From contig NZ_LGHJ01000019.1 in assembly GCF_001306055.1 (NCBI RefSeq), positions 227,986 to 259,985 of the forward strand: a stretch of 32,000 nucleotides of DNA, written 5' to 3'. Positions within the stretch are counted from its first letter, which is position 1. Each line of letters begins with the position of its first letter. The notes beneath the pieces were generated by a model, which saw only the letters and a program-made list of their open reading frames with translations, made no database searches and was not told the origin of the DNA. Origin of the DNA: Bellilinea caldifistulae. Its GTDB lineage: Bacteria > Chloroflexota > Anaerolineae > Anaerolineales > Anaerolineaceae. The position numbers and the translations under genes are program-made. Below, one piece after another: positions 4,878 through 32,000 of the stretch.

Positions 4878-7800
4878 TGACCAGTAATTTCATCGGTTTA
4901 AGCAGTGCCGCATCTACGGTGTAGGGCAATGCCACAGTCCGGTAATCCTTCACTTCCAGGTAGACCATGCCGTTCTGATCCACCAGCCTGGCATCAAATG
5001 CCAGACTGCCATCACTCGATCGGCTGGGAATGACCTCGGCAAACAATGGCTTGTCCTCCTGCGGCACACTGCGATGCAGCACCAGTTCGCCAATTGAGCG
5101 CGGTAATGCCAATGTGCCGGTCGCTCCCGCTTCCCAGATGCCAGCAGTCTGCAAAATCGCTTCCAGCAAAATCGGCATGGTTACCAACGAGACCGGCTGC
5201 TCGGTGATAGCCGGCAGGGATTCACGGACTTTGCCCAACACCTTCCCCTCCACCCGTTGGACGCCTTCCAGGACTTGGAAAGAAGGGCCGTGGAAGTAGA
5301 GACGATAGATCTCATCGCTGGCAACGGTGTAAGCGCCGTTCCAACCGGGCGGTTGAACTTTAACCGATGCAGATTTTTCCGTCTTTGGGGTCAAATAAAC
5401 TTTTCCGGCAAAGTGCTGGATGACTTCATTCGGACGAGTTTTAGCAACCAGGGTCGATTCAAGGCTGACATAAGCCACCAAACCACTCGCCTCGCGGATT
5501 ACTCTGGCTTTCCAGGTTACCCGGCGCGGTTCGTTGCGGTAGAACTTGAAGGGAGCCAGGAATTGAACATCTTCCAGACGTTCAACTGCAAAGCCGACTT
5601 TTTCAGCACCCAACACTGAAGCAACATGCTTCGCCGCCGCTGAAAATCCTTCAATTCCCATCACCCCCGGCAGCAAGGGGATTCCGTTCAAAGCATGGTC
5701 TTTGAGAAACGGCTGGTCATTCGGATTCAATTCGGCTTCCAGCAGCACACCGGTTTGCAGGTCAAAGCCGTTCACTGCGCTGAGCATGACATGCGCCGGG
5801 CTACCTTCGCGTAAAGCCTGATTAGCGGCTTCCAGGTTCAAACCGCTCTCCTTGCGGAGCGGTTTTTCCAGAACACCCAACGAACCGGAAACTACCACCT
5901 CACTGACCGGCTCATTCCCTACCAGTTCTTCATAAACAAAGCGGGCTGCCTGCTTCGGAGGCATCTGGTCAATCCCGCCCATTTCCATTAATTGAGGAAT
6001 ATATCCGCGACTCGCCATCCCCACCTGCGCCCAGGCGCTCCAATCAATGGTGACCACCCGCATTTCCGGGTGCAGACCACGCAGGTGAGAAGCAGCCTTT
6101 GCCAGCCAGTCATTGGCAGCACTGTAATCGGTCTGACCGGAATTGCCAAACCTGCCGGCAACCGAACCAAACAGCAACACCTGCTTTGGCAATCTATCCG
6201 CTGTTTGAAGGGCTTTGTAAAGATTGAAGAAACCTCCGGCTTTAACCTGAATAGTCGTACGGAATTCTTCCTCCGGTTTGAGATGCAGCTTTCGGCTGCG
6301 TTCAATGCCGGCTGCATGAATCAGGACATCCACGCGACCATTCTCCTCGACAATCTGACCAATGGTCTCCCCTACCTGATGAGGATCGGTAACATCACAT
6401 AACCGGTAGACCACGCTGGCTCCAAGTGAACGGGCAGTCTGAATGGCATCCAGAATGCCAGCCATACGCTCCAATGCAGCCAGTTTCTCTTCCACCTGCG
6501 CAGGGGAAGGTTTTTGTCCGTTGGCGCTCATTTCTCTGAGCAGGTCTTTTTTCAAGCCATCCCGATCCGCTTTTAATCGCTGGAGGGCTGCATCCTGAGG
6601 ATCGGCTAACGGACTGCGTCCCAGCAGGTAGAAGATGCCCTGCGTTCGCTGTGCCAGATCCGTAAGGATTGGCGCAACAATACCGCCAGCCCCGCCGCTG
6701 ATAATCATTACCGGTTTCTCAGGTAGAGTTGATTGGACCGGATTGTTTCCTTCTTCTTCAAAGAGGGCAATGCTAAAGCGCTGATCGCCCTCCCAGCCGA
6801 CTTCAACCACAGAGGCATCGCCGAGCGTCTCTCCGACCAGGCGGGCAGCAATCTGGCTATCATTTGCGCCTGCTTCAAAATCTACCACCTTGACCAACGC
6901 GTTTGGCCGTTCACGGCTAATAGCTTTGGCAAAGCCGGAAATCAAACCGCCCGAAACATTCTTAGCCGCAGTTACGCAGGTTCCATGCAGGCCGCCCATG
7001 CGGGTTGCACAGATCAAGAAAGGCTCACCTTCCACCATCCGGAGCAAGTGATAGAGGCGTACCAGGCGATTATCTACCAGAGATTGCCAGACACGAACAT
7101 CCTGTTCCGCCAGTGATGGCTCATGGTTCAAACCGACCAGGTAATACAAACCCTGAACCCTGCCAGTGCTTTGGAAGGAGGCAACTTTTTCCTGCCATTC
7201 CTCGGGCGTCTGGGAGGAATCCAGAGTCAAAATTTGGACTTTGCGGGCGCGCAACCTGCGGGCAAGGGAATCGGCTGTTTTGCCTTCATCACTCACCAGA
7301 ATCACCCTGCTGTTTTCATCTAGAGTGACTCCGCTCGGCAGACACAAATCCAATTTCGGCAGCAGCACCGGTTTTGGAACCCTTCGGCGGATGAGAATTT
7401 GCGTCTCTGCCGGCTCTTCGGTTGGTTTAGGCTCTTCAACGGTCTCCATGGCAACCGGAGCTTGCACCTCTTTGGTTGACAGCGCCTGCGCCGTCGGCTC
7501 TTTTGTTGAAACGGACTCAACAACAGGGGTAGCGGTGACAGGTTTTTCTTCGGAAACGGGCAGTTCCTCGGTGCTGGTCGCCTTCCCATTCGTTGATAAC
7601 GCCTCAACCATGAAGCCGATGACTTTTTTCAAGGTGTTGTAATCCACCAACCTGAGGTCTTCCCGCCGCGGGATGTTGTAGTGGGTGCGGATAGTCGCAA
7701 ACAGTTCCGCCTGTTTTACCGTGTCAATTCCTAAATCGGCTTCCAGGTCCAAATCCAAATCCAGCATTTCAACCGGATAGCCCGTCTTTTCACTGACAAC

Positions 7801-10800
7801 CGACAGCACGTAGGTTTTAATTTCCTCTTCATCCACACCGGAGATGGAAGTCCGTGTTGGTGTTGAAGAAGGCTGTTCGCTCTCAGCCTGGACTGGTGCC
7901 GATACTTCGGCAGGTTCAACCGCCTTGCTGACCGGCTGGGCAACCGTTGTAGCAGCCGGTTGAGACTGACTGACAACCCCGCTGCTCAAAGCGTCCACCA
8001 TGAAGTCAATCACCTTCTCCAGGGTGTTGTAATCCACCAGCCGCAGGTCTTCCCGCCGCGGGATGTTGTAGTGGGTGCGGATGGTAGCAAACAATTCAGC
8101 CTGTTTGACGGTATCAATCCCTAAATCGGCTTCCAGGTCAAGCCCCAGGTCGAGCATTTCAACCGGGTAACCGGTCTTTTCACTGACCACTGAAAGCACA
8201 TATTCTTGAATGGCTGCCCGGTCAACGGCCGGGGCTGCAGAAAGAGACGGGACTGATTGAGCCACCTGCATAGGTATCGGCTGAGGTTCAGACTTATCCG
8301 AAGCAGGCATGGCTACATCTTCAGCCGGTTGAGCCTGAGCAGCTATCGCAGCCGCATTTTCCGCCATGAAGGAAATCACTTTGTTGAGGGTGTTGTAATC
8401 AACCAGCCGCAAATCTTCCCGTCTGGGGATGTTGTAATGCGTTCGAATTGCAGCAAAGATTTCAGCTTGTTTCACCGTATCAATGCCCAAATCGGCTTCC
8501 AGATCCAGATCCAAATCCAGCATCTCGACCGGGTAACCCGTTTTTTCACTGACCAGATTGAGAACAAATTCTTTGATCTCATCTACCTTGACCGGTGATC
8601 TGCCGGCGGGCGAGGAAGTTCCCAAGACAACAGGCTGGAGTTTTTCCTTTTCTTCAACCGCTTCAACAGGATGAGCGGCAGGCTGCGGACTCGGCACACC
8701 GACCGGTTGAGATTGCGGCAATTGATCCGGCTGCTCTGCCCAGCGGGTAGGTCCCTGCCCATACTGCCAGCGGGATTTAGCCGGCGGTTTAACCGGCGGT
8801 CCCATGTGGCGGATCCGGAGAGTGCGTTTTTCCACCTCCAATTCGGCTTTTTCGTAACCCGCAATTTCCGCCAGCCATTGCTGATAGACTGGTTGATTGA
8901 TCCTTTCCTTTACATGGGCAACCACCCGGAATAACGCCATGGCAATTTGCGAGCCAAAACCGGCCCCCAACCGCAGAGCATAACTGACCGGGTATTCACC
9001 GCCTTTTGATAGGTTCAAATCACCCAGATCCGGGTCGGGTTCAAAATTCTCATCATAATTGGCAATCGGCGGCACAATTCCATGTTCCAGGGCTTTGATC
9101 GCCACAACATCTTCAATCCCCACGCCCATTGCATGACCGGTGTACCCTTTGGTATTTGCGATGATCACCTGATTGGCTTTATCGCCAAAGGTGTATCGGA
9201 GTGCCTGAATCTCCGCGGAAGCCGAACCGCCTCTGGCGGGGGTGTAGGTTTCGTGAGACATGAACATGGTTTGAGCGGCAATTTCTTCCCGGCGAATACC
9301 AAAACGCTGCTCGGCCGTGCTGATCAGGCGATTCATGATTTCCCGCACATGGGGAACATCCAGGCGGGTTCCATGATAAGCGCTATTGGCGATATCCGTC
9401 GCCAACACCTCACAAATCGCCCGCATGCCGCGTTCTCGCACCGCATCTTCGGACTCAACTACCAGTGCGGCCGCCCCCATTCCCATGATCATCCCATTCC
9501 GCCGGCGGTCAAACGGCAAAGCAGCCATACGCAGATTACCTTCTGTGGTAGCCGCACCAGAAACGAACAAGCCGGTTCCAATCCACTCCGCCAGCGGACC
9601 GCCGGTCACATCGTCACCCGCAATGATGACGACTCGGCGGCAACGTCCGGCGCGAATCCAGTCTTCAGCAACCGCAATCGCATGGGTTGTGGTGGCACAG
9701 GCAGCGTTGACATGCGTATTCGGGCCGCGTGCGCCAATATATTCAGCAAATTGCGAATGCCCCATTGAAAGCACCCGGAAGACAAAACGGCGATCAAAAT
9801 GGTAATCCATCTCTTTGAGCCTTGTTTCCAGTGCTTTGATTCGCTCGCGCAGCAGGTTTCTCACCCCCGTCTGATCCACTGCGACCAGACTGAGAATGTT
9901 GCGCACTTCTTCTAACTGCTTCTCAACTTGCTTGTATTCGGAATAACGCGACATCTCTTCCGCCATTTCATCCAGCCCCGGGAAGGCAGAAGCAAAGATC
10001 ACACCGGTTTCATCAGCCAGCGCTTCTGGCAAGCGCCAGCGGTCGGGGAGATAAGTGCCTTTACTGGTCTTACGATAGGCCATTACCAGGGGAATTCCGG
10101 CATCCCTCAAAGCTTCAATGCCGGCAGCCACTGCGAGTTGGGTGGTAATATCCCAGGCATCCGCACGCTCTACCGGAATGCCGAACTCTTCCACCGGATC
10201 AAATTGCCCGCGCTGTCCACCCAACTTTACGGTCAAATCCACGCTTTCAATCGGGATCATCTGGGCGCCGGCTTCGCTTTTTTCCAAACGGGTTGGCCGC
10301 TTTTCCACCATTCGCTTGCGCAATTCTTCCGGCAAAGGTTCAATGCGGATTTCGCCTTTTAAAATACTCAGGATATTCTCATCATTGAAAACGGGTTTTG
10401 ATCTGCCCGGCAGCCCCAAGCCTGCACCGCTGATCACGACCGAACCCGTCAATGGCAGGCGACCGTCGTTGACCGGTGTCTGTACTTCAACCATCGGTTT
10501 TACAGACGCGCTAATCGCAACCGGGGGGACTGATTTCACACTTACCTCATCAATAGCGGATTTTTGAGTGGACACTTGTGCTGGCGTTTCAAGTTTCTGT
10601 TCTCGACCGGGCGCAATTCCCGCTGCCAGCAGACCACAAACTGCTTCGTTAAAACTGACCACTGCACCTTTTCGGGGATGATTGGTTGCCAGCAGCATGA
10701 CACCCGAGCGGTCTTTGAAAATATCATTTGCCAGAGCGTTCAATACCCGTTTCGGCCCAATCTCGACAAAGACTCTTGCTCCGGCATTATAGAGCGTTTC

Positions 10801-13410
10801 CATGCCTTTAATAAATTGCACTGGCGAGGCAACCTGCTTTCCCAAAATATCCAGAATCTGTTCCCGGCTGGTGGGGTAAAACTCGCCGGTCACATTGGCT
10901 GCCACCGGAATCTTGGGGGATTGCAGGTTCATACGCGCAATAACCTGTTTGAGGGGCTCGCTTGCCGGGGCAACAATTTTTGTGTGGAACGCATGAGAGA
11001 CAGAGATGCGGGTGGCCTGGTAACCGGCTTTTTCAAAAGCCTCTAAGGCAGCCTGAATACCTGCCGTGCTGCCACCCACGACCGATTGCATGGGGCTATT
11101 GATGTTGGCGATGACCACATATTCCGAGATTTCCTGTAAGATCCGTTCAACCTCTTGAATGGGAGCAGAAACTGCCACCATACCACCATTATCCGCCACC
11201 GAGACTTTTTTCATCTCACGGCCGCGTGCCGAAACGACTTCCAAAGCCTCCGCAAAAGTCAATACGCCGGATGCCACCAGTGCGGCATATTCCCCAAGGC
11301 TGTGACCAATCACAAAATCGGGGGAAAACCCGAATTTCTCCATCAACCGCAGCAATGCGACATTGGCCGTCAACATCGCTGGCTGAGTGATCGCCGTATC
11401 CCGTAATGCGGCTTCGGCTTGTTTTAACGATTCTTCGTCCCCCTCTACATAAATGTAACTGGTTAAGGGACGCCCCAAAATGGGTGTCATGATCGCATCA
11501 GCCTCTTTGAAGGTATCCGCTACAAGTGGTTCGGCTTCGCACAGGTCTTTGAGCATGTTGACATATTGAGATCCCTGCCCGGGGAACATAAAGGCAACTT
11601 TACCAGCCTTCCCGCTGCCCCGATAAACCCCCTGGGCAGTCAGCGCCTGCCAGGCATTTGGGGCTTCATTGTCGAGCGTTTTAAGCGCTTTTTCTCCCCG
11701 TGAAATCAACTCCTCAACCGATGAGTAGTCAATCACCAATCGCTCGGGCTTGGTTACCATCGCCGCATCTGGCAATTGGGAAGGTGGTAATTGACCCTGG
11801 CGGGCATTTTCTAAAATTTGAGCCAGTTGTTCCTTTAACTGCTGGCTGTTTTCCCCACTCAGGAAGGCGATTCCGCGATAAGGCACGGGCAAGGTCGAAG
11901 AAACCGCTTCCGCCACGACTTGCGGAGCAGGACTTTCCACCTGCGCCGCTTTTCTTTCCGGCACCGCAAACACCTTTGTTTCAGAAGTCAGCAGCCCCGG
12001 CACCCATTCTTCCAGCACCATGTGAAAGTTGGTGCCGCCAAAACCAAACGAACTGACTCCAGCCCGGCGGATTTCTCCAGGGGCATTTTCCCACGGTCGG
12101 GTTTCGGTATTGACGTAAAAGGGAATGCGGTCGAAATCAATATTTGGGTTGGGTTTATGGAAATTCACAGAGGGCGGCAAAACTTTTTCGTACAAGGCGT
12201 ACATGGCTTTCAGGACACCCGCCGCCCCGGCCGCACTCTTCAAATGACCAATATTGGACTTGACCGATCCCATCGCAATGCTGCGCGGTGGCAGACCAAA
12301 CTTTCCAAAAACCTCGTTGAGAGATTGTGTCTCCACCACATCCCCAACCCGCGTGGAGGTGCCATGGGCTTCAATCAAACCCACACTGGCAGGGTTTACG
12401 CCGGCATTCTTCCAGGCCCGTTCAATCGCACGCTGCTGACCAAGAGGATTGGGAGCCGTAATCCCTTTACCTTTGCCATCGCTGCTGGCGCCAACCCCGC
12501 GGATAACCGCATAAATTTTATCCCCGTCCCGTTCAGCATCGGCCAGCCGCTTTAACAAAAAGAGCACAGCCCCTTCGCCCATGACGAATCCATTCGCCCC
12601 TTCAGCGAACGGCCGTGAACCGTCCGGCGAAAGCGCCCCAATCTTACAGAATTTTACGAACCCCTCAACCCCCATATTGCGGTCCACACCGCCCGTCAAA
12701 ACCGCATCAAACTGGTGATTGACCAGCCCGTCAATAGCGGCTTGAACCGCTGCATGAGAAGAAGCACAGGCAGCGTCTGTGATGAAATTTGGGCCAGAAA
12801 AATTGAACACATTGGCAATTCGGCCGGCAATCACGTTGCCCAGTTCACCCGGCATGGTATCTTCGGTAATATTGCTCACCCTTTTGCGGATATTTTGCGT
12901 CATTCCCTCCAGCAGCGCCTTCTGCACTTCTGGTGGTAGTTGGGCAAATGCTTCCACTTCTTTAAGGGCTTCCATATAATCCGGCAGACGAATTCGTAGG
13001 CTGGTTATGTAATGGTTTTCACCCGCCAGCGCATTGCCAATAATCACCGCCGTACGTGTTCCATCAAGGGGTTTCTGCGGGTAACCGTAATCTAAAAGAG
13101 CCTGCCGCGCTACACTGATGCCCCACTTTTGGCTTTCATCCATCACCGCCAGAACGTTTGGTGGAATGGGGATCCCCCATTTCAGCGGCTCGAAGGGATA
13201 AGATCGTACCCACGCCCCAATTTTGGTATAAGTTTTATCCGGTGCTTTTGGATCAGGATCATAATACAAATCCACCCGCCATCGATCGGGCGGAACCTCG
13301 GTCACTGAATATCGCCCTTGCTTGATATTGTTCCAGAATGCAGGCGCATCTTCAGCATCCGGTAAAATTGCCCCCACTCCGACAATTGCAACGGCTCTAG
13401 GATCAAACAT
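4855..13410 (-). CDS. PfaA-like iterative type I polyketide/fatty-acid megasynthase, KS-AT-KS-ACP-ACP-ACP-KR-DH (2851 aa)
   Basis: This is a single uninterrupted 8.5-kb ORF with AAGGAG 6 nt upstream of ATG 13410. Domain motifs are listed in the domain features below. Confidence 0.9.
   Translation of the reverse strand: [2851 protein letters not shown]
4906..5808 (-). other. PKS-type (double hot-dog) dehydratase domain (aa ~2535-2835)
   Basis: It has the HxxxGxxxxP motif in [14 protein letters not shown] (His2572). The position after KR matches PfaA. Confidence 0.7.
5911..7323 (-). other. ketoreductase domain incl. structural subdomain (aa ~2030-2500)
   Basis: It has the Rossmann motif [10 protein letters not shown] and the SDR catalytic context GQTDYSAAN. 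Confidence 0.75.
7585..7827 (-). other. carrier (ACP-like) domain 3
   Basis: The domain sequence is near-identical to domain 1. The attachment position is Thr1897 (ACG, 7720-7722). Confidence 0.75.
7975..8217 (-). other. carrier (ACP-like) domain 2
   Basis: The domain sequence is near-identical to domain 1. The attachment position is Thr1767 (ACC, 8110-8112). Confidence 0.75.
8341..8583 (-). other. carrier (ACP-like) domain 1
   Basis: Sequence is [50 protein letters not shown]. The attachment position is Thr1645 (ACG, 8476-8478). Confidence 0.75.
8926..10449 (-). other. KS2: second, divergent ketosynthase domain (aa ~988-1495)
   Basis: It has [23 protein letters not shown] with Cys1238 (codon 9697-9699), [12 protein letters not shown] and [13 protein letters not shown]. 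Cys and both His are present, so this is not a CLF. Confidence 0.7.
10696..11601 (-). other. malonyl-CoA:ACP acyltransferase domain (aa ~604-905)
   Basis: It has [20 protein letters not shown] with Ser704 (codon 11299-11301), and SHAFHT. Confidence 0.85.
12007..13401 (-). other. KS1 domain (aa 4-468)
   Basis: It has TDAACASS with Cys215 (codon 12766-12768), [11 protein letters not shown] and [14 protein letters not shown], giving a complete C-H-H triad. Confidence 0.85.
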
Positions 13411-15989: not shown

Positions 15990-17063
15990 GTGAATTTACT
16001 GACTTTACTGGAATTCATCCTGTTTTTTGGGGTGATGTTATTTGTGCACGAATTTGGTCACTACCTGGTTGCCAAGCTTTTCAAGATTCGGGTTGAGGAA
16101 TTCGGTTTTGGCTTTCCTCCCCGCCTTGTCAAATTATTTAAAATCGGAGAAACCGACTTTACCCTGAACTTAATTCCCTTTGGGGCTTTTGTACGGCTCT
16201 CCGGCGAAAACGATCCTTCCGTGCCGGGTGGCTTTGGCAGCGCCAATCCCCTTGCCCGAATCGCCGTTCTGCTTGGCGGTCCGGTAATGAACCTGCTCCT
16301 GGGTGTTGTTCTTTTCTCAGTCATGTTTACTCAGACCGGTATGCCGGATACGCGCAAAGTCATGATTGCCTCGGTTGCGGAGGGATCTCCTGCCGCGCAG
16401 GCTGGAATGGCCGTTGGGGACTTAATTATCCGCGTCAATCAAACCCCCGTCACCAGCATGGAGCAATTGATTGCCACTGTTCAGGAAAACAAAGGAAAAG
16501 AAGTAACCATCACTCTTCTCAGGGGGGATCAGGAAATTTCCGTCCAGGCTGTTCCCCGCGTTCAACCCCCGCCGGGCGAGGGAGCGTTGGGCATCTCCAT
16601 GACCAATCCAATTACCAGCGTATCCTGGTTTGAAACTGTACCGGTGTCCTTCAGGGCGACCTTCGAGCAAGCGCGCATGATTTTGGAAATGCCGGGGCGA
16701 CTGATCCGCGGCGAAGTTTCCGGCGAACAGGCACGAGTTGTCGGACCGGTAGGCATCTACTCCATGTTTTCTCAGGCTCGCGAGATGGATGAAGAAAACG
16801 CCGCCTCGACCGATCCCTTTGAACGCACCCTCACTCTGCGTCTGATGACGGTGATTACCATTGCGCTGGGGTTGACCAACCTCTTCCCCATCCCTGCTTT
16901 GGACGGCGGACGAATTTTATTCATCCTCCCTGAGGTAATTACCCGCCGGCGTATCCCGCCTCAGTATGAAAACCTTGTTCACTTGATTGGCTTTGTAGCA
17001 TTGATTTTATTGATGTTTTACATAACGGCTCAAGACATTCTTAACCCTATTCAACTACCTTAG
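15990..17063 (+). CDS. rseP: RIP site-2 zinc metalloprotease (M50, RseP family) with PDZ domain
   Basis: It has HEFGHYLVA (HExxH) in TM1, a PDZ-like segment AEGSPAAQAGMAVGDLII, and the NLFPIPALDGG motif. Confidence 0.85.
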   Translation: MNLLTLLEFILFFGVMLFVHEFGHYLVAKLFKIRVEEFGFGFPPRLVKLFKIGETDFTLNLIPFGAFVRLSGENDPSVPGGFGSANPLARIAVLLGGPVMNLLLGVVLFSVMFTQTGMPDTRKVMIASVAEGSPAAQAGMAVGDLIIRVNQTPVTSMEQLIATVQENKGKEVTITLLRGDQEISVQAVPRVQPPPGEGALGISMTNPITSVSWFETVPVSFRATFEQARMILEMPGRLIRGEVSGEQARVVGPVGIYSMFSQAREMDEENAASTDPFERTLTLRLMTVITIALGLTNLFPIPALDGGRILFILPEVITRRRIPPQYENLVHLIGFVALILLMFYITAQDILNPIQLP

Positions 17064-22736: not shown

Positions 22737-23267
22737 ATGGAAGTTTCCAAACCATTTCAAAGTTACGAACCGCCACCTCCCCAACTTAAACCAGCCGATC
22801 CGGTTACAATCCTGGTTGCCGATGCGGCAATCGGGATTATTCTGGAGGAGTTAACCGAGGTATGGATCGAACATATCGGTAGCACGGCCGTTCCCGGTTT
22901 AGCGGGCAGCGGCATTATTGATCTGATGCTGATCAGTTCGCCCGATCAGATCGAACCGGTTCAGAAAGCCCTGGATCGGCTTGGCTTTCAGCAACCACAC
23001 CCCAACGATCCGCTTTCCTCAACACCACTGGTGAGGGTGGCATCCATGCCTTATGAAGGTAAATCGTATTTAATTAACCTCTATATCGTTGACAAGGATT
23101 CACCCAGGGTAAATCAATTCCGCACTTTTCGCGATCGGCTGCGCCTTGACCCCGCTTTTCGCTCTGCCTATCAAGACCTCAAACGTTCATTCTTCGCCAG
23201 AGGTAGTCTCAGCCCTTCGGAATACACCCGGGTAAAGAGTGAATTTATTCAGAGGGCTTTGAGTTAA
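22737..23267 (+). CDS. GrpB-family (UPF0157) nucleotidyltransferase-fold protein
   Basis: It has IEHIGSTAVPGLAGSGIIDLML and the C-terminal RDRLRLDPAFRSAYQDLK. Confidence 0.75.
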   Translation: MEVSKPFQSYEPPPPQLKPADPVTILVADAAIGIILEELTEVWIEHIGSTAVPGLAGSGIIDLMLISSPDQIEPVQKALDRLGFQQPHPNDPLSSTPLVRVASMPYEGKSYLINLYIVDKDSPRVNQFRTFRDRLRLDPAFRSAYQDLKRSFFARGSLSPSEYTRVKSEFIQRALS

Positions 23268-23300
23268 AAAACAATGGTGTGGCCTTTGCAGACCACACCA
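23265..23300 (-). terminator. rho-independent terminator of the RRM-protein gene
   Basis: On the minus strand an 8-bp stem TGGTGTGG/CCACACCA (23275-23282 / 23293-23300) with a 10-nt loop is followed by TTGTTTTTT. It lies 27 nt downstream of the stop at 23327. Confidence 0.55.
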
Positions 23301-23326
23301 AAGCACAGCAATTGTTCAAAAAGAAA

Positions 23327-23683
23327 TTACCAGCCGCGACGGCCACCGCCACCACGGTTACCAGACTTTCCACCCCGTCGGTCATTGCCATAATTACTTC
23401 TGCGGTCAAACCCGCTGTCGAAATTGCGCGGACCGCGTTCTTCCCGAGGGCGGGCAGCATTGACTGTCAAATTGCGGTTCATGAACGCTTTGCCGTTCAG
23501 GTTTTGAATCGCATTTTGCGCTTCGCTTTCGTTGGCCATTTCCACAAAACCAAAACCGCGCGGCTGACCCGAAAACTTATCCTTGATCAGGTTAACAGAA
23601 GTAACCGTACCAAAGGCAGAAAACAACTCGCGAACCCCATCTTCGGTCGCATCAAACGACAAATTACCTACATAGATATTCAT
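23327..23683 (-). CDS. RRM-type RNA-binding protein with Gly/Arg-rich tail
   Basis: It has RNP2 IYVGNL, RNP1 RGFGFVEM, and a C-terminal RGGGGRRGW tail. Confidence 0.9.
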
Positions 23684-23841
23684 TTTTTTCCTTTTCTTTT
23701 CTGTTTGACAATCCCAAGTGCAGTTTTGTTATTGTGGTGCTGATAGAAAACCAATGCGACCGAAAACAATACCAGAGAGCCTCAGGATGTCAGATGATGA
23801 ATGACGAACGCATTTATTTTACCACGTTTTCAGCATTACAG

Positions 23842-24402
23842 TCACATTTCTTCTCGAAAGATTAACCCATACTTCTTGCGGGCTGCCAGCCATGCTTTTC
23901 GCAGTAGCTCATAAACCTCATGCGGGTTTTTGATATTTCTCAGAACAATTTCCGCATGAGAAGGATCGGCGCCTTTGATGCGGATATCTCCAATGTCCAG
24001 AAGCCGTTCACCGACCGATTGAGCAAAGTCAATATCCTGAACCCGGATCAACTCGTAATTTTCGTAGTCCTTTCCCAACAGCCCTTTGACCACTTTAATC
24101 CTCTCGTTGGTGATCACATAATATTCAACCAGCGAAAGCAGCGGTCTGCCCTTCCACAATACTTGCTCTCCGTCACCAGATTCAGCAAGTCGGGTAAGTT
24201 GATCATCCGCATCCGACCCAATCACTTCATCCATCACCACCAGCATCTGTGCGGTAACTGCATCCACCAGTTTATTTTGATCATCGCTCGAAAGGGCAGC
24301 CAGATTGACCCCGCTTTGGGCAATTGCCTGCCAGGCAGCCGCTTTAATTTTACTGCGTACCTGTTCCAATTCCATCGCCAGCCTCCTCATTTTACAATTC
24401 AA
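23842..24402 (-). CDS. bacterial PH (bPH_2/YdbS-like) domain protein
   Basis: The segment VLWKGRP...YYVITNERIKVVKGLL...ELIRVQDIDFAQS...GDIRI matches the membrane-flanked PH-domain pattern. The start codon is uncertain (ATG 24402 or the MELEQ ATG). Confidence 0.5.
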   Translation of the reverse strand: MNCKMRRLAMELEQVRSKIKAAAWQAIAQSGVNLAALSSDDQNKLVDAVTAQMLVVMDEVIGSDADDQLTRLAESGDGEQVLWKGRPLLSLVEYYVITNERIKVVKGLLGKDYENYELIRVQDIDFAQSVGERLLDIGDIRIKGADPSHAEIVLRNIKNPHEVYELLRKAWLAARKKYGLIFREEM

Positions 24403-24462
24403 TTTTGACTTTCTGATGAAATTATATCTGAAAGCAAATTCATCCTGTTATACTTATATTGT

Positions 24463-24630
24463 ATGCCCAATCAATTACCTCGAATTGAAATCCCCAAAGA
24501 TGAAATCGAGTTCGATTTTATCCGTGCTTCCGGCCCCGGTGGACAGAATGTCAACGGCGTGTGTACGAAAACCCTGACGTCTCCCCAAACCACCCGGTCA
24601 CCTTCCCGGAGCCGTCTTTTGAGAGAATAA
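24463..24630 (+). pseudogene. arfB: 5' fragment of an arfB/yaeJ-type peptidyl-tRNA hydrolase (GGQ, RF-1 domain) gene, disrupted after codon 31
   Basis: My own translation gives MPNQLPRIEIPKDEIEFDFIRASGPGGQNVN, then unrelated GVCTKTLTSPQ... to TAA 24628-24630. At 55 aa it is below the ORF-track cutoff. Similarity ends at about 24555, exactly where the recombinase gene ends. Confidence 0.7.
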
Positions 24631-26158
24631 CCTTGGCGTGCAACAGCTCCAGCACCTGACGCTTGCTCTCTGGTGTAGGGTCCCAATCCTCATTTGCAAT
24701 CCGTTCCCTTACTTTCTGGGCAAAACCTTCTAAATCTTCAAACTGCCTCTGAGTTGGTACTGCTGTGGGTACGGACTCAATCTCCTCTATTCTCGCGCGG
24801 ACTTCGGTAAGATCCCGGTCTAACTGCACCCTTTGGGCGAGATATTCGGTTTTTGTCATCTGGATGTCTGGATCGGTGTAAGCGCGGGTCAAATTGGTTA
24901 ACTTTTGCTCTAGTTTGCCGGCTGACCGATAATACCCTTCCAGTAGGATGCGCGAACGCGAGCGATTTTCCACATCCAATTGTTGAGCCTGGTAATAAGC
25001 CTGTCTCAAAACCTCTGTATCGACCAGCATTTCCTTTACGGCTTCCCAAACACGTTCTTCCAGACTTACTGCTGTTATTTCCCGATCCATACACTGGCCT
25101 TCAATTCTGCGATGGCGATAGGATCGATGGGCTTTTCGATGCTCCTTTGGACGATCCTTTTGGAAATTGGCTCTGTAAGGTTTCTCACATTCCATACAAC
25201 GGATCATCCCGGATAATAGATAAAAGTGTTGAGGTTGGCGGCGGAGCGCTTCACGATGGTCCTTTATCCTCATTTGAACGAGGTTAAATAATTGCACGTC
25301 TATCAGAGGGGCAATTTCAATCTTAATCCATTCACGTTTTTCACGTGGTTTTAGATCCGAATTACTCCGGCATACCGATTTGTTGTAATGGACATACCCT
25401 TTATAAGTGGTATTGGTCAGGATGTTTCGAATGGCGGATAAGTGCCAGTTTGGTTTACCCGTGTAGGAAGGAATACTACAGTTTTCTAGCTCAACACGAA
25501 TCCTGTGCATAGAGTAGTTCTCCTCGCCATAAAGCGAGAAGATCAATCGAACGACCTCGGCTTGCTCAGGATGAATAGGCAGTCCCCCCATTCCCTTCGC
25601 ATCCAATATGTAACCATACGGTGTCCGTCCACCAACATACAGACCCTTTTCGGCTTTACCACGTTTCCCACGATTACAACGCTCAACCCGTTTGGCGTTC
25701 TCCCACTTGGCAAACGTGGCGTCCATATCTTTGCGCACCTCTCCTTCAGGGAAGTCGTCATAATTTCCGAGCGCAAATTCGACTTTAGCTCCGCGCCGGA
25801 AGAATTCCTTCTCCAAGGTTTGGCGGATGTATGGGTCGCGGGCTAACCGATCGATCGAATGGACCACAACAACATCAAAGCCATAATCTTCGAGATTGGT
25901 CAGCGCAGCATCCAGACTGGGACGGTTCATTTCACGGGAGGAATAATCATCAACGTAAGCGGGAATTGAATTGGGATTTTTCTCAACATCCAGGCCGCTT
26001 TGTTTGTCCACGAACGCATTGCCCACTAGGGTATAACCGTTATTTTGACAATACTTGACGCATTCCGCAATTTGGGTGGGAATTCTGAAGTTGGATCGCT
26101 GATCGTTCGTAGAAACCCGAGAGTAAATAATCGCACGTTTGGTAGCCATAATTATCAC
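24551..26158 (-). CDS. large serine recombinase (integrase)
   Basis: It has the N-terminal AIIYSRVSTNDQ catalytic Ser motif and the resolvase core VVVHSIDRLARD. It also has a recombinase domain, a Cys-rich zinc ribbon (CMECEKPY) and a coiled-coil C-terminus. The probable true start is ATG 26149, with AGGTGA 5 nt upstream. Confidence 0.9.
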   Translation of the reverse strand: MIIMATKRAIIYSRVSTNDQRSNFRIPTQIAECVKYCQNNGYTLVGNAFVDKQSGLDVEKNPNSIPAYVDDYSSREMNRPSLDAALTNLEDYGFDVVVVHSIDRLARDPYIRQTLEKEFFRRGAKVEFALGNYDDFPEGEVRKDMDATFAKWENAKRVERCNRGKRGKAEKGLYVGGRTPYGYILDAKGMGGLPIHPEQAEVVRLIFSLYGEENYSMHRIRVELENCSIPSYTGKPNWHLSAIRNILTNTTYKGYVHYNKSVCRSNSDLKPREKREWIKIEIAPLIDVQLFNLVQMRIKDHREALRRQPQHFYLLSGMIRCMECEKPYRANFQKDRPKEHRKAHRSYRHRRIEGQCMDREITAVSLEERVWEAVKEMLVDTEVLRQAYYQAQQLDVENRSRSRILLEGYYRSAGKLEQKLTNLTRAYTDPDIQMTKTEYLAQRVQLDRDLTEVRARIEEIESVPTAVPTQRQFEDLEGFAQKVRERIANEDWDPTPESKRQVLELLHAKVILSKDGSGKVTGWFGETSGFSYTRR

Positions 26159-26662
26159 CTAACCCTTAATGATCTTAACGCCATGTCCATTGCGCCGAAT
26201 GCGCCCTTCAGTTTCGAGACGTTCCAGGTAGGAGTAAACCATCTGCCTGGACATGTTCAGTGTACGCGCAGCATCTGTCACCCCAATCGTTGGATTGTCA
26301 CGGAACAGTGTCAAAAGATTGTCCATTCGGTTACCTTGAATGACCGCCCTGGCTTGACGCGCTTTGACTAACGAGCTGTCTGGAGTGACAGTATTAGACG
26401 CTGCATTGGACGCTAACAGTTCAGTCAGACTCCCCGTTGTTGGACGAACAGCTTGACGTTCCGCTTTACGCTCAGCACGATCCTGGGCAATACCTGCCAG
26501 ACGCCGGCGATGACCAGAACACAAGGCCAGATTGACGGCACCGACCAGCGCCAGAATTGGAAAGAGCGCCGGCGCGTAACGGGCCAGATCTGGGTAAATA
26601 TCCAGCAGCACGGTCAAACCAATGGTGGAAACCAGGTAAACGCCGACTAAAGAAGCTGCCAA
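26159..26662 (-). CDS. membrane-associated protein with C-terminal winged-HTH
   Basis: Two N-terminal hydrophobic helices are followed by a basic linker. The wHTH reads TIGVTDAARTLNMSRQMVYSYLERLETEGRIRR. The annotated start is a TTG without SD. The frame stays open upstream to a TAA, and an internal ATG gives a 55-aa wHTH-only product. Confidence 0.5.
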   Translation of the reverse strand: MAASLVGVYLVSTIGLTVLLDIYPDLARYAPALFPILALVGAVNLALCSGHRRRLAGIAQDRAERKAERQAVRPTTGSLTELLASNAASNTVTPDSSLVKARQARAVIQGNRMDNLLTLFRDNPTIGVTDAARTLNMSRQMVYSYLERLETEGRIRRNGHGVKIIKG

Positions 26663-26731: not shown

Positions 26732-26998
26732 TTACGGTAGGCCCAGGCTCTCGATGATCTCAGCGGCGACCCAAGCTAACTCAGCGCTCCAATGCAAGTC
26801 TTTGACTGTGGGATTGGCCACCAAAACCGCACTGGGAATGGGCATGATCCAGAGACCGATGGCGGCAATGCCATCGGTCAGGTTGGTCTCAATTTCCGAG
26901 AGAGTCTCCCGGAATCGAAAAAGAAAAGATTGATCAGCCAAGATGAGCCTCCTATACATGTAGGGGGCAACAAAAAGCCCCCGGTAAATGGTCCCCAC
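26732..26998 (-). CDS. small hydrophobic protein, possibly the N-terminal part of the downstream ORF
   Basis: It contains IAAIGLWIMPIPSAVLVA and AELAWVAAEIIESLGL. It is in the same frame as 26159-26662, separated only by TAA 26732-26734. Confidence 0.35.
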   Translation of the reverse strand: MGTIYRGLFVAPYMYRRLILADQSFLFRFRETLSEIETNLTDGIAAIGLWIMPIPSAVLVANPTVKDLHWSAELAWVAAEIIESLGLP

Positions 26999-27213: not shown

Positions 27214-27441
27214 CTAGTTACGATGGGTGCTGGGCGGCAGCGTAAAACCGCCAGCCACCCATGCCTCTAACTCCTCCTCGGAAACGCCCAGCAGTTCGCA
27301 CCAATTCAGCCCGACAAACTGAAACCATGTTCGAGCCTCGGTCACGCAGGCCGGGTTATCGCTCTCCAGATCCAGCACGGGATGGTAGATCATGGCCAGG
27401 GCCAGGTCTATATACGGGTCATGGATAATCACGTCATCCAT
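27214..27441 (-). CDS. small hypothetical protein (75 aa from ATG 27441)
   Basis: The ATG overlaps the upstream stop in ATGGATGA, which suggests translational coupling. No recognisable motif was found. Confidence 0.4.
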   Translation of the reverse strand: MDDVIIHDPYIDLALAMIYHPVLDLESDNPACVTEARTWFQFVGLNWCELLGVSEEELEAWVAGGFTLPPSTHRN

Positions 27442-28366
27442 CTTTGCTTTCCTCGGATTTCTCCGGAAGATAGATATGGATGACCTCCCCATCTGTAACC
27501 GCCGTCAATCGTTCTCTCAACTGTGGTATGGGCGAGCCGCTGATTTTCTCGGCCTCCACATCCTTATCCAGGAAGATCGACAGTGCCATAGCCAGCAGCT
27601 CTGGGTTGTAACCGGCCTCGATCCTGCCATCCGGCAGCCGGCGCCAGCAGCCGCCAATCGTGGGCATTTTACTGTCCGCGGGCAGGCGGATGACGATTTC
27701 ACAATTCAACCAGAGTGCTTCAGTCTCTTGTGACATTTGGCCATCAGTGACATGAGTGACATTATTTTCTTGCCCCAGCTCGTTCGGCAGTTGGATGTTA
27801 TAAACGGCTGCCCAGCGTGTCAGATCTGCGAGGGTGATCTGCCACATGCGCGTACCTTTGCCGGCTTCACACGCCTTGCGCAGCCTGAGTTTTCCCAGCA
27901 GCCGTCCCACCTTCCGTGAAGTTATTTTCTCCGGGTCGATATCGGCTTCGGTTTGCTCGGCGATGTGCTGGGCGGCTTCGCTGATCTGAGATGTCGTAAA
28001 TGTCCATCCGGCTGAATGGATGTCACTGTTGTCTTTAATGTCACTCTTTTCATCTGCCAGCTTACACAGCCCCTCCAGCACCAGTAAAAAGATGTCTCCC
28101 GATTGCTGGTCGGCGCTCTCCTCCTGCTGGTAGCGCCAGGACATCTCCTCCAATCGCTGCCAGAGGCCGCCTATTACCACCTGGTCCTGACCTTGATTGC
28201 GAACTGTGTAAGAGTGCTGCAATCGGTGCTGCTGATCAAGACTGTCCCACCAGGCGGCGACGGATAGGATCGCTTTCCACGGCTGAAGGTTGCGCCCACT
28301 CAAGCGGGCATTTTGGGCGACATGAGTTTCAAAATCATGCAGCAAGGGCAAATTTGCCAGACCCAC
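27434..28366 (-). CDS. hypothetical protein; probably the C-terminal half of the primase/helicase-like protein
   Basis: Its GTG start has no SD. The frame is open upstream into the preceding ORF and reachable by a +1 shift at the C6 run (28393-28398). Confidence 0.5.
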   Translation of the reverse strand: MGLANLPLLHDFETHVAQNARLSGRNLQPWKAILSVAAWWDSLDQQHRLQHSYTVRNQGQDQVVIGGLWQRLEEMSWRYQQEESADQQSGDIFLLVLEGLCKLADEKSDIKDNSDIHSAGWTFTTSQISEAAQHIAEQTEADIDPEKITSRKVGRLLGKLRLRKACEAGKGTRMWQITLADLTRWAAVYNIQLPNELGQENNVTHVTDGQMSQETEALWLNCEIVIRLPADSKMPTIGGCWRRLPDGRIEAGYNPELLAMALSIFLDKDVEAEKISGSPIPQLRERLTAVTDGEVIHIYLPEKSEESKDG

Positions 28367-28376
28367 GGCCCACAGA

Positions 28377-30092
28377 TCATCGACCAGTGCGCGGGGGGTC
28401 GTGTGGCCAGAAGGTGTGATCTAGGGGATCGAAATTGGCCTTGTCACGGTCGGCGGTGCGGATGAGGGGAATGACGATGGTGCGCGATGCCAGAACGGGA
28501 TCGGGTATGTTGATCCCGGAAAACAAGCGCGGGCTGTAGGCGTTCACGTGGCGCAGCTTCCATTTTCCAGGTCCGTCCGGTTCTTTCAATGGTATGGTCA
28601 AACCGCGCCGGTTGCCGGCCAGCAGCAATGCGCGTTTATCCGGGTCGGTCTTTTTCGGGTCAGCCAGGTTCTCGGCGTCGTCGAAAGCCAGGGTCGCGCT
28701 ATAATCCGCCAGGTCGCGCAGGCTGGCAAAGCTGCCGCCGGCCAGGATGAGCTGCCCTAGATAAGCCATTTCGGTCACCACGATTAGCAGGTTAGTCTTT
28801 CCTGATCCGGCTCCCCCGTTTGGCCAGAGAAACCCGATCACATTGAATGCATCCAGCAAGTTGGTTGCCATGATGAAGCAGGCAACCAGTTCCGCCATGG
28901 CCTGCTGGTCACCCAACGAATGGTCGAAATCCAGGAAGCGATTGACCACATCCACGACTTGCTGGAAGGTGTAGATCGGGTCGGGGATCTTGCCCTGAAC
29001 GAAGGCGCGTACGCCGCGCGTAGACCAGCGTTTCTCAATTGGGATGATTTCGGGGAGGATGGCTTTCATCCCCAGTTCACTCAGAGGGCGTGTGCTTTGG
29101 CCGTCGCTGACTTCAGTGAAAACACGCCGGTCGCTGCGAACGATAAACAAACAGGTCTTTTCTTCGACCAGGGGCGGGTTGTGGACGATCAGGTTGCCAT
29201 CCTTGTCCAACACTTCGCGCTGGGTGGTGCGCACCGGCAGCCAGGTCGCAGCGAATGCATATTTCCCAATCAGGCAGAGGGGACGCTTGATATTGGGCGA
29301 AGGTTCATCCAACAACTTGATGGTCGGCAGGGCAACATGGGGGATGGGGCGGGGGAATTGTGCCAGCACTTCCAGGTCCTTCAGATCATGCCCGCTGGCC
29401 AACCAGTCATCCACACCCCATTTGGCCCCGCTGGGATGGTTGGGTAGATAGATCGCCGAAACCGTGGCTCTCTTGCGCTGGAGGATTTCCGTTCGGCGTT
29501 CCATTGCCTGGCGCACCGAAGGTTTGTACATTACGTCCGAGTCGAAAACGATGCGCACCGAGCGGTTCTCCCAGGCAACGAAGTCGAAATCCGCCAGGAT
29601 GGTTGTCGCGCCAAATTCATTGCGTCCTTTGAAGTTCCAGACGCCGAGTAAATCAATGGTGCAAGCTCCTGCCGTGGTTAAAGAATCGGCTTTCTTCTGC
29701 CCCTCGGTGATGTACAGCGGAATGCTCGGATTTTTGAGCTTCTTCATGCAGGAGGATGGGCAGTCCACCCGCACACCGGTATCCTTGGGAATCTCGTACT
29801 TGAGGACCTTGACCGGTCGTAATCTGTCCGAATCACGTTTGCCGCGATTTTCATAGGTGCGTGGGTCGTCCGGACGGTAGACATGCAAGCCAACCTTGCC
29901 GTCCGTGGGGTGTAAGGGGATCAGCAGCCCGGGCACACGCCGCTGGGCGGGCGAAAAGCCATATTGAACCAGGTCGCCCTCGCTGGTAATCGTGCGGTAG
30001 CCACGCTCTCGAATCACCTGTTCCGAGATGCCCGATTCTTCGGTAAGCATCTTCAAGTGTTTGTCTGAAAGGGACAGGTCGGTGAGGCTCAT
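28377..30092 (-). CDS. Toprim-like (DUF3854-type) plus P-loop NTPase replication protein (primase/helicase-like)
   Basis: Toprim-like motifs are LYITEGQKKADS and VRIVFDSDV. Walker A is NGGAGSGKTNLL and Walker B is TLAFDDAE. AGGAG lies 8 nt upstream of the ATG. Confidence 0.7.
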   Translation of the reverse strand: MSLTDLSLSDKHLKMLTEESGISEQVIRERGYRTITSEGDLVQYGFSPAQRRVPGLLIPLHPTDGKVGLHVYRPDDPRTYENRGKRDSDRLRPVKVLKYEIPKDTGVRVDCPSSCMKKLKNPSIPLYITEGQKKADSLTTAGACTIDLLGVWNFKGRNEFGATTILADFDFVAWENRSVRIVFDSDVMYKPSVRQAMERRTEILQRKRATVSAIYLPNHPSGAKWGVDDWLASGHDLKDLEVLAQFPRPIPHVALPTIKLLDEPSPNIKRPLCLIGKYAFAATWLPVRTTQREVLDKDGNLIVHNPPLVEEKTCLFIVRSDRRVFTEVSDGQSTRPLSELGMKAILPEIIPIEKRWSTRGVRAFVQGKIPDPIYTFQQVVDVVNRFLDFDHSLGDQQAMAELVACFIMATNLLDAFNVIGFLWPNGGAGSGKTNLLIVVTEMAYLGQLILAGGSFASLRDLADYSATLAFDDAENLADPKKTDPDKRALLLAGNRRGLTIPLKEPDGPGKWKLRHVNAYSPRLFSGINIPDPVLASRTIVIPLIRTADRDKANFDPLDHTFWPHDPPRTGR

Positions 30093-30645: not shown

Positions 30646-30708
30646 TTTTCGAAGGTTATTGGTTCAAGAGGGCTTCTTCTTGGAATCCTTGATGTAATTC
30701 GACTTTCC

Positions 30709-31326
30709 TTAGGGTACTACTTCAGCCCCATAATCTTTTCGCAGCTTATTGATCCGGTTGAGGACTGTTTTTCTCGAAAGGCTTACCCGAACCGCGATTT
30801 GCTCACAGGTCAGGCCTCTGTGCCAGTGGCGCAAGATCTCGCGGTTGGGTCCGACATTCGGAAGGGTCATCCAGATCTCCGCAGTTGGATTTGCTGGTTG
30901 AGATTGCGCTTCGGTACTGGTTACAGATTGTGGAGTAGTAGAAGCAGTGACTTCGGGGATTTCTGGCAAGGAAAACCAGCCCAACTTTTCCAGTTCGTCG
31001 CGGATCGCATCCCACAGGTCCCAGAGGGTTCTTTCACCAGTCATGCGAATTCGTAAAAGGGTCCCGTCTAGGGGTAGAACATGAGCGTGAATGGACAGGA
31101 GATTCCTTCCGATTGACAACTTTACTTCAATTGGGTTGGCATCCTGTGGAATGCTGCCAGCATCTTTGCGTCCGCCCGGAAGTAGAATTTGGCACGCTAG
31201 CCATTGGTAGTTTGCTTTGCTCCGTAAGGCCAGGGCGAATTGACGCAGCATGACCCCGAACTGCGCCGGCGTGCCTTTGATGGAGAAATCGAACTGCTCA
31301 TCGATTTTCTCTGAGCCGTTTCCCAC
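30709..31326 (-). CDS. LuxR/sigma-region-4-type HTH protein with unknown N-terminal domain
   Basis: The C-terminal segment is NREILRHWHRGLTCEQIAVRVSLSRKTVLNRINKLRK. A Pro/Thr/Ser/Gln-rich linker precedes it. The GTG start has a poor SD, and the frame stays open upstream to TAA 31423-31425. Confidence 0.55.
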   Translation of the reverse strand: MGNGSEKIDEQFDFSIKGTPAQFGVMLRQFALALRSKANYQWLACQILLPGGRKDAGSIPQDANPIEVKLSIGRNLLSIHAHVLPLDGTLLRIRMTGERTLWDLWDAIRDELEKLGWFSLPEIPEVTASTTPQSVTSTEAQSQPANPTAEIWMTLPNVGPNREILRHWHRGLTCEQIAVRVSLSRKTVLNRINKLRKDYGAEVVP

Positions 31327-31422
31327 AGCTCCAAAAGGCAGATCGTGATAACCAAAGATTTGTAATCTGCTGGAAAGCCAGACTTTGAATTCCTGCTGTC
31401 GCTGGACGCGCTTCTCATAAAG

Positions 31423-31764
31423 TTAATCAGAGAGAATGGCCCGGAAAACATCTTTCTGGCCATACAAATCGGCAAGTCGTCCTCTGAGGCCAAGGACCTC
31501 TACACTGAGCAGGTTTTCATACTTTGGAAGCTCATTCGGGGTGATGGGTTGTGGTGGGTCAAAACGTAACTCTGTTCGACCTGACGACTTTTCAAGACAG
31601 CTTATCTTCCCAATATCTCCCCATTTCTGACATTGGATTTCTAACATGTGGCCATCTGACAACGCACAAGAATATACTTCCTGTATGAAGATTGGTTGAA
31701 AGCAGGCCAGGACGGTTGACATCACACGCGAAGGATGTGCGTTTGTATAATGAACAGGCACCAT
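31423..31764 (-). CDS. hypothetical protein, possibly the N-terminal part of the HTH protein
   Basis: It is in the same frame as 30709-31326. An AT-rich upstream region carries a minus-strand TATAAT at 31816-31821. Confidence 0.4.
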   Translation of the reverse strand: MVPVHYTNAHPSRVMSTVLACFQPIFIQEVYSCALSDGHMLEIQCQKWGDIGKISCLEKSSGRTELRFDPPQPITPNELPKYENLLSVEVLGLRGRLADLYGQKDVFRAILSD

Positions 31765-32000
31765 AAACGAACGAATTTTATTTAACCTTTGATAAAAGAA
31801 TTACGATATCTCAATATTATAAGACAGAAAACACGAACGTTCTGAATTTCAGTTTTTCTATGTACCTAATTGGGATTACGCAACCTTTTTTCTGTAAATT
31901 CGAGTCAGAAATATCCATCGTTCTTTAACAATCAAATGACTTGCCAGAGCAATAATGTTTGCCGATCTGCCACTCTTCTGAGATCTCCATCAAGAGGGCT

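Follow-up and report, generated by a model that had tools for sequence, protein, structure and literature searches.

arfB as the apparent landing site of a serine recombinase element in Bellilinea caldifistulae, with an intact arfB at the far end

Introduction

Some mobile elements that carry a large serine recombinase (LSR) interrupt conserved host genes. In skin/sigK (SpoIVCA), SPbeta/spsM (SprA), the fdxN element of Anabaena (XisF) and Listeria A118/comK, the LSR gene lies at the element end and abuts the break in the conserved gene, as it does at the locus described here. Excision rebuilds the interrupted gene, and in elements of the skin/sigK type it is programmed in a cell that differentiates terminally. 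An LSR exchanges attP and attB, whose half-sites differ, at a 2-bp core and yields attL and attR with no duplication of the target; sites of the attL type do not react unless an RDF is present. Other islands leave a complete target behind. SXT/R391 sits in prfC, a translation-termination factor gene, and retains a full-length target ORF. Islands specific to dusA replace the 5' end of that gene (Farrugia et al. 2015, PMC4482086), and they likewise combine a full-length target ORF with a displaced 5' remnant at the other junction. Within ribosome rescue, the nearest conceptual neighbour is CP4-57, a tyrosine-integrase prophage at ssrA of E. coli whose excision inactivates tmRNA (Onodera et al. 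2022, PMC10107115).

We analysed a stretch of 32,000 nucleotides from Bellilinea caldifistulae (the window), in which a plasmid-like integrative element abuts a 5' fragment of the ribosome-rescue gene arfB. An LSR integrative element with a conserved protein-coding target is a known kind of element; the target arfB and the host clade, Anaerolineae, are new. With the gene-interrupting LSR elements the locus shares a short core crossover, here AA. It differs from them in target and clade, in the absence of evidence of developmental control, and in that the Bellilinea target stays whole through a duplicated 5' segment. The dusA islands and SXT/R391 use tyrosine integrases and bring their own diverged 5' sequence, whereas the Bellilinea element uses an LSR and the 5' copy is identical to host DNA at 125-127 of 128 positions. 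The likeness to CP4-57 is that of a mobile element in a ribosome-rescue gene, so that its presence or excision could affect rescue capacity; the gene concerned is that of tmRNA there and arfB here, with no change of function shown. In a full-text search of the literature, arfB did not come up in any paper alongside a serine recombinase, a large serine recombinase or attB, and the one paper that connects arfB with integration sites or genomic islands deals with those of tmRNA/ssrA, not arfB. This agrees with a preliminary description of the locus, made from the window alone, which was aware of no report of this target.

Results

An arfB 5' fragment at the end of a recombinase gene

The 55-codon ORF at 24463-24630 (+) is chimeric. 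Its translation reads MPNQLPRIEIPKDEIEFDFIRASGPGGQNVN followed by GVCTKTLTSPQTTRSPSRSRLLRE; codons 1-31 are a displaced 5' end of arfB with the GGQ motif (residues 26-28), and codons 32-55 run antisense to the 3' end of the LSR gene. Residues 1-31 match the full-length ArfB of the same organism at 100%. The ORF aligns to the Pfam RF-1 family (PF00472; E=8.8e-9, 35.8 bits against a cutoff of 35, profile positions 5-33 of 116) and to the NCBIfam ArfB equivalog NF006718 (E=5.4e-10, profile positions 8-38), where its score of 39.1 bits stays below the equivalog cutoff of 100. The preliminary description had read this ORF as the N-terminus of arfB with its GGQ motif and had expected it to align to the RF-1 model, and both matches, which lie far beyond chance, bear this out.

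The likeness to ArfB stops past Asn31 (24553-24555). Only residues 1-31 belong to ArfB, and the ORF lacks the full architecture of about 140 aa and the basic C-terminal tail. As the TGA stop of the LSR gene (complement of 24551-24553) lies inside arfB codons 30-31, the break in arfB coincides with the 3' end of the recombinase gene, which was also part of the earlier account. A six-frame motif scan found no 3' part of arfB within the window. The ORF thus looks like a displaced remnant, presumably non-functional as ArfB, and in annotation it should be flagged as a remnant and not as a gene.

The attachment site and its counterparts in other hosts

Left of the fragment lies a chromosomal gene for a bPH_2 domain protein of 177 aa (23842-24375, minus strand; Pfam PF03703, E=2e-14). 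The same gene adjoins intact arfB upstream in an empty-site contig (L008) and in relatives (L009-L012). The empty site, which the preliminary description had suggested seeking in related genomes and metagenomes, was found as a metagenome contig of 1,961 bp with genes for an RRM protein, the bPH_2 protein, an intact ArfB and a dodecin. It shares 99.3% identity with 23093-24554 of the window in its left flank and 99.8% with the isolate in its right flank. A related species, with an ArfB that is 85% identical, has the same uninterrupted synteny.

Scanning one genome per species for homologues of the LSR yielded four further hosts with amino-acid identities of 77-97%, namely Levilinea saccharolytica (L016; 97%), two Anaerolineales MAG contigs (86%) and a chromosome-level MAG (77%). 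A fifth relative, on JGI contig L024, was added through protein look-up. The LSR genes of all five relatives abut an arfB 5' fragment that is specific to their own host and ends in …GGQN(V/I). Across the attL junctions of the six host lineages, a host B arm that varies up to the wobble base of codon 30 is followed by AA and then by CGGCGT(G/A)TGTACGAAAACCCTGACGT; the text common to all lineages is ...GGQN(V/I), AA, then CGGCGT(G/A)TGTACG. The P' arm of the element attachment site, CGGCGTGTGTACGAAAACCCTGACGT (24555-24580, +), overlaps the last LSR codons and is identical or has one mismatch in 6/6 attL junctions. Since six host-specific B arms and one conserved P' arm meet at AA, the crossover would fall on this dinucleotide, the first two bases of the Asn31 codon (24553-24554). 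A recombinase-less island of a second host, described below, joins at this AA as well. The recurrence of attL at the same AA in six hosts would fit a site-specific exchange; an LSR does not normally produce a 128-bp duplication such as that at the far end in this genome.

The empty site, the synteny of the related species and five more lineages with a break at the same nucleotide together support arfB as the attB of the LSR element, as had been proposed. The Levilinea and Bellilinea elements share 93% DNA identity over 7 kb, and their hosts belong to different genera. Together with the 97% identity of the recombinases, this indicates that the element moved horizontally. A more distant LSR (L020; 44% identical) occurs without an arfB fragment.

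Two further loci (L021, Ornatilinea apprima LGCL01000003.1, and L022) have the same backbone of HTH gene, DUF3854 Rep gene and winged-HTH gene and have no arfB fragment. The recombinase gene is broken up or shortened in both, with ORFs of 384+183 aa at one locus and of 196 aa at the second, and both copies adjoin a gene resembling that of mevalonate-diphosphate decarboxylase. They may represent either a different attachment site or decayed copies.

The stop codon of the LSR comes from the host side of attL. In Bellilinea (24551-24556), GTCAAC provides the TGA. The host sequence of L024 (junction at about 16848-16930), GTGAAC, supplies no stop, and the called LSR ORF continues into arfB antisense (555 aa as against 535); Levilinea (L016, about 11590-11660) also has GTGAAC, and by our own reading its LSR ORF gains about 11 residues. 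With a stop supplied by the host, the C-terminus of the recombinase varies between integrated states and between hosts. In the MAG OY969938.1, just outside attL (L019:11678-14462), there are three families of dispersed direct repeats of 46-167 nt, with 2-4 copies each that are 64-98% identical to the reference copy. This extra DNA, about 6 kb in length and with an AbiEii gene in it, separates the arfB remnant from the bPH_2 gene, and the repeats may be remnants of other insertions at the same locus.

Genes and cargo of the element

The LSR gene (24551-26158, minus strand) encodes 535 aa from a GTG and has been called as 532 aa from the ATG at 26149. The protein has the complete domain set of a large serine recombinase, with catalytic resolvase (PF00239, 82.1 bits), recombinase (PF07508, 66.4 bits) and zinc-ribbon (Zn_ribbon_recom, PF13408, 28.4 bits) domains all above their Pfam cutoffs. 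It matches the integrases of PHROG 95 (E=8e-84) and has a YSRVSTNDQ motif near the N-terminus; similarity to the CcrB and XisF models is weak and below cutoff. Next to it, a winged-HTH regulator of 167 aa (26159-26662, minus strand; HTH_24 and AbiEi_4 matches, PHROG 633 transcriptional regulator) is conserved beside the LSR in relatives. Three backbone genes on the same strand, of 88 aa (26732-26998), 75 aa (27214-27441) and 310 aa (27434-28366), have no family match, and none of the small backbone ORFs was recognised as an RDF.

The DUF3854 protein of 571 aa (28377-30092, minus strand; Pfam E=6.9e-20) is a probable replication initiator or primase, judging from tblastn matches annotated as 'plasmid replication protein, CyRepA1 family' and 'phage/plasmid primase, P4 family'. 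Over the Toprim-like region it is 26-33% identical to proteins of CyRepA-type cyanobacterial plasmids and P4-like primase elements. The Bellilinea element differs from CyRepA-type plasmids in being chromosomally integrated through an LSR, with no autonomous form observed. We found neither capsid nor conjugation genes, and scans of IMG/VR with the P' arm and with the LSR gave no match. For these reasons, and because of the putative Rep, we describe the element as plasmid-like and integrative.

The backbone HTH gene at 30664-31764 (minus strand) is uninterrupted in relatives, where a single ORF encodes 283-359 aa. Every Bellilinea copy has two in-frame TAA codons in this gene, one at 31423-31425, where Levilinea has GCG, and one at 30709-30711, where it has TAC; they split the gene into ORFs of 113 and 205 aa. 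It may be either a pseudogene or a real split.

The metagenome copies diverge from the isolate right after 31873. Contigs L002, L003 and L031 match the window up to this position only, and a Logan unitig (L004, run DRR198553) ends at 31902, 30 bases (k-1) past it. The sequence from 31874 to the end of the window at 32000 is probably an isolate-specific insertion, for example an IS or other repeat. A minus-strand ORF ends there at about 31927 (...LLLWQVI and stop). In the public scaffold (L001) a run of N starts at the equivalent of 31960, where the window has real bases.

The element measures at least about 8.9 kb, the metagenome version of the Bellilinea element reaching at least 8.86 kb with its terminal gene incompletely assembled. 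To the right of the backbone lies variable cargo, which exceeds 10 kb in Levilinea (L016), in the MAG OY969938.1 (L019/L023) and in L024; the contigs L017, L018 and L025 are short. The cargo at L023:1-9650 includes a SNF2 helicase, an SMC/AAA ATPase, an AIPR protein, an N6/N4 methyltransferase and ResIII, and that at L024:1-9400 includes Z1, DUF4420, DUF6339, HhH-GPD and DNA methylase genes; both look like anti-phage defence.

A complete arfB beyond the far end

The preliminary description had predicted the 3' half of arfB on the plus strand beyond 32000. The remainder of the gene indeed lies just past 32000 and on the strand of the window fragment, on scaffold DF967971.1 of GCA_001050215.2, but what is found there is a complete arfB of 141 codons and not a bare half. 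Along the scaffold to the right, a stretch of N comes first and is followed by 84 bp of non-chromosomal DNA, which leads into arfB. The encoded protein shows no differences from that of the empty site. It scores 171.8 bits against NF006718 (cutoff 100), contains PF00472 and matches E. coli YaeJ (4v95) with E=1.6e-28 across residues 8-134, basic tail included; it spans the length of YaeJ, with the tail ...RRSAKQHRSQVKRWRRY.

arfB is intact with the element integrated because a 128-bp segment, made up of 36 bp 5' of the start codon and codons 1-31 up to AA, is duplicated at the far end. The left copy (24427-24554, +), the host-derived B arm side of attL, runs into the LSR end (…GTCAA, then CGGCGTGTGTACG). 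The right copy runs in frame into arfB codon 32 (…GTCAA, then TAAAGTGGCAAC), and the 128-bp copy and codon 32 onward together encode the 141-aa ArfB. The window copy is identical at 127/128 positions to the far-end copy of the source genome (L001/L006), at 125/128 to that of L007 and at 126/128 to the empty site; within one sample the two copies differ by 1-2 bases, by which a recent origin is neither proven nor ruled out. The same right-hand junction stands at the end of an independent JGI contig of 571 kb, Ga0226835_1000010 (L007), where 125 bp of foreign sequence, the repeat and arfB follow one another. The far-end gene also restores a complete attB.

These findings overturn the further claims that the element inactivates arfB and that only excision could restore an intact gene, since the duplicate already provides a full-length arfB in the integrated state, which makes arfB function in this genome independent of excision. 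The proposed analogy with skin/sigK, in which the host gene is non-functional while the element is integrated, fails with them: the target is uninterrupted here, and an intact 141-aa arfB is present in two independent assemblies. The combination of a full-length target ORF at one junction with a displaced fragment at the other is that of a gene-restoring island of the dusA, prfC/SXT or icd/e14 type.

The DNA 5' of the far-end repeat differs from the chromosomal left flank and carries a divergent promoter-like site (TTGACG-18-TACAAT) and a gene start reading into the element. Because this DNA is foreign, a mis-scaffolded empty site is ruled out. That the far-end arfB is linked to the LSR element is suggested by scaffolding and by co-occurrence in one metagenome; the public scaffold has its N gap between element and arfB, and the metagenome contigs stop within a terminal gene. 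A stretch of 28 bp separates the foreign sequence from the repeat and has no second copy in the window or in any retrieved locus.

The upstream part of the repeat includes TGTTATACT near the start codon, in a block that is conserved in relatives. By eye this motif can be read as a putative extended -10 box; in neither context did a scan for the sigma-70 consensus find an arfB-oriented promoter 5' of the start codon. The far-end arfB retains no more than 36 bp of its native upstream DNA, from which it would have to be expressed.

The foreign far-end sequence, GGTTTTCCCCTTTTCGTC before AA, was considered as the P arm of the element and rejected, with 5/26 matches to the reverse complement of P' at fixed offset and a best scanning match at P=0.13. 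The arm left of AA at the far end is a B arm, which matches the reverse complement of P' at 7/26 positions. A surviving P-type arm is predicted to resemble ...GTGTACGGCTTTATGTTCACTGTATG before AA.

A mirror-image arrangement in a second host

Another Anaerolineae host (ArfB P0128) has an island in arfB at the same Asn31 AA, on contigs L036, L038 and L042 (e.g. L038:3811-10236). From the left, an intact arfB is followed by 4.9 kb of foreign island and by a second arfB copy, which starts exactly at AA and has a 3' ORF of 112 codons. Contig L037 has the same intact arfB and island and ends at the start of the second arfB copy. Empty sites of this host are found on L034, L039, L040 and L041. The island has a GC content of 0.49 as against 0.62 in the flank. 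Its genes code for a TrwB/TraG-like coupling ATPase, two membrane proteins and a protein of 315 aa, and it has no recombinase gene. Host DNA is directly repeated around it. The repeat comprises about 937 bp on the left, at least 526 bp of which is visible on the right at 99.8% identity, and it takes in part of a neighbouring gene.

We compared the island arm beside AA with the P' arm of Bellilinea and found dyad symmetry at 13/26 positions at fixed offset (empirical P=0.0056). Such symmetry is as expected if the island arm were a P arm and the island belonged to an element with an integrase of this family, the end with the recombinase having been lost.

Discussion

We favour, with a probability of roughly 0.65, an LSR insertion at the AA of arfB Asn31 that was followed by a secondary, host-derived duplication, the window ORF being the displaced attL remnant. 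The LSR would have brought a plasmid-like element into the GGQNVNK-coding DNA of arfB in B. caldifistulae, with the crossover at the AA of codon Asn31, a site-specific step for which the comparative junctions give direct support. Unequal recombination, or homology-facilitated illegitimate recombination, with an uninterrupted arfB copy would then have produced the host-derived 128-bp duplicate, at the cost of the right tip of the element including its P arm. One exchange of this kind could give both the Bellilinea and the mirror-image arrangements, with deletion of the element tip on the duplication side. The resulting element would be silent for arfB, bounded by 128-bp direct repeats and probably beyond excision by its own LSR. 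The repeats would permit its precise, scarless loss through homologous recombination, so that the natural empty site need not reflect LSR activity.

Several features argue for a duplicate derived from the host. Its identity to host DNA at 125-127 of 128 positions, with abrupt edges, in an element that moves between hosts with very different arfB 5' DNA, suggests a recent host-derived duplication rather than a built-in mimic. The far-end arm is a B arm, and a site composed of B and P' is attL-like. The mirror case, with about 937 bp of host DNA duplicated at 99.8% identity around a recombinase-less island, and the decay of the Bellilinea copy, with two in-frame stops and an isolate-specific insertion, point the same way. 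The LSR ORF, intact in all Bellilinea copies, counts against this view, as an intact ORF is not expected if the recombinase has long been useless.

The same intact ORF would sit well with an element-borne restoring segment of the SXT/prfC or dusA style, in which the 128-bp arfB start travels in the attP side and rebuilds arfB at each integration. This possibility also fits the outcome, in which one end has the displaced 5' remnant and the opposite end the full-length gene, in an arrangement common to two strains and with a conserved upstream block and putative -10 box inside the duplicate; dusA islands replace the 5' end of their target likewise (PMC4482086). We nevertheless consider it rather unlikely, because a segment carried across genera with divergent arfB 5' ends would hardly be so close to the copy of its own host. 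A circle with a B arm and P', moreover, would be of attL type and unable to recombine with attB under the established LSR model, and the duplication in the mirror host, which takes in part of a neighbouring gene, looks like duplicated host DNA and not like a mimic. A split arfB that is inactive while the element is integrated and is regenerated by LSR excision alone, as for skin/sigK, fdxN/XisF and SPbeta/spsM, would account for the LSR gene abutting the break, for a crossover inside the catalytic GGQ-coding region and for the existence of an empty site in nature. The relatives may be truly split, in that none of 206 homologues (the best 120 matches per search, hence weak evidence) is a full-length ArfB with the N-terminus of one of the other element-bearing hosts. 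For this genome, however, the far-end sequence refutes such a model, as a complete 141-aa arfB accompanies the integrated element both here and in a metagenome strain of independent origin; nothing ties the element to a differentiation programme, and it is polymorphic and crosses genera, so that we hold this explanation to be very improbable.

An assembly artefact or a mixed population, in which the intact arfB came from element-free cells and was mis-scaffolded beside the element, could be suspected from the N gap in the public scaffold, from the contigs that break around the repeat and from Logan unitig L004, which ends 30 bases into the repeat and so has two continuations in that read set. 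Yet each of two independent assemblies has foreign DNA running directly into arfB (84 bp of it in L001 and 125 bp in L007), which carries its own divergent promoter-like site and gene start, and the true empty-site contig L008 differs in having bPH_2 directly upstream of arfB. These observations render an artefact highly unlikely. A broader interpretation, speculative and in our opinion quite unlikely, is that an Anaerolineae family of plasmid-like LSR elements, often with defence-type cargo, targets the near-universal GGQNVNK-coding DNA of arfB and that long crossover-anchored duplications repeatedly re-establish the gene. The LSR system itself might then generate or carry long host-identical arms, which, if true, would contradict the current model of short asymmetric attP and attB sites. 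Alternatively, arfB might be under unusually strong selection in this clade, such that only 'repaired' insertions persist.

The insertion in arfB adds this gene, at its catalytic GGQ-coding segment, to the conserved genes that serve as landing sites of serine integrases. The junction is defined by six host lineages, and the 40-50 bp around AA form a candidate attB that is directly testable. Bacteria in general conserve the target DNA and arfB has a mitochondrial homologue (ICT1), which could make the integrase interesting as a tool with a broad range. That arfB has been kept whole by duplication both in Bellilinea and in the second host hints that loss of ArfB is costly in Anaerolineae. The case also illustrates that a 'split gene' inferred from a single junction can mislead. 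Unrelated to the arfB finding, the window encodes on the minus strand (4855-13410) a multidomain synthase of 2,851 aa (KS-AT-ACP-KR-DH) that resembles a PUFA or polyketide synthase subunit.
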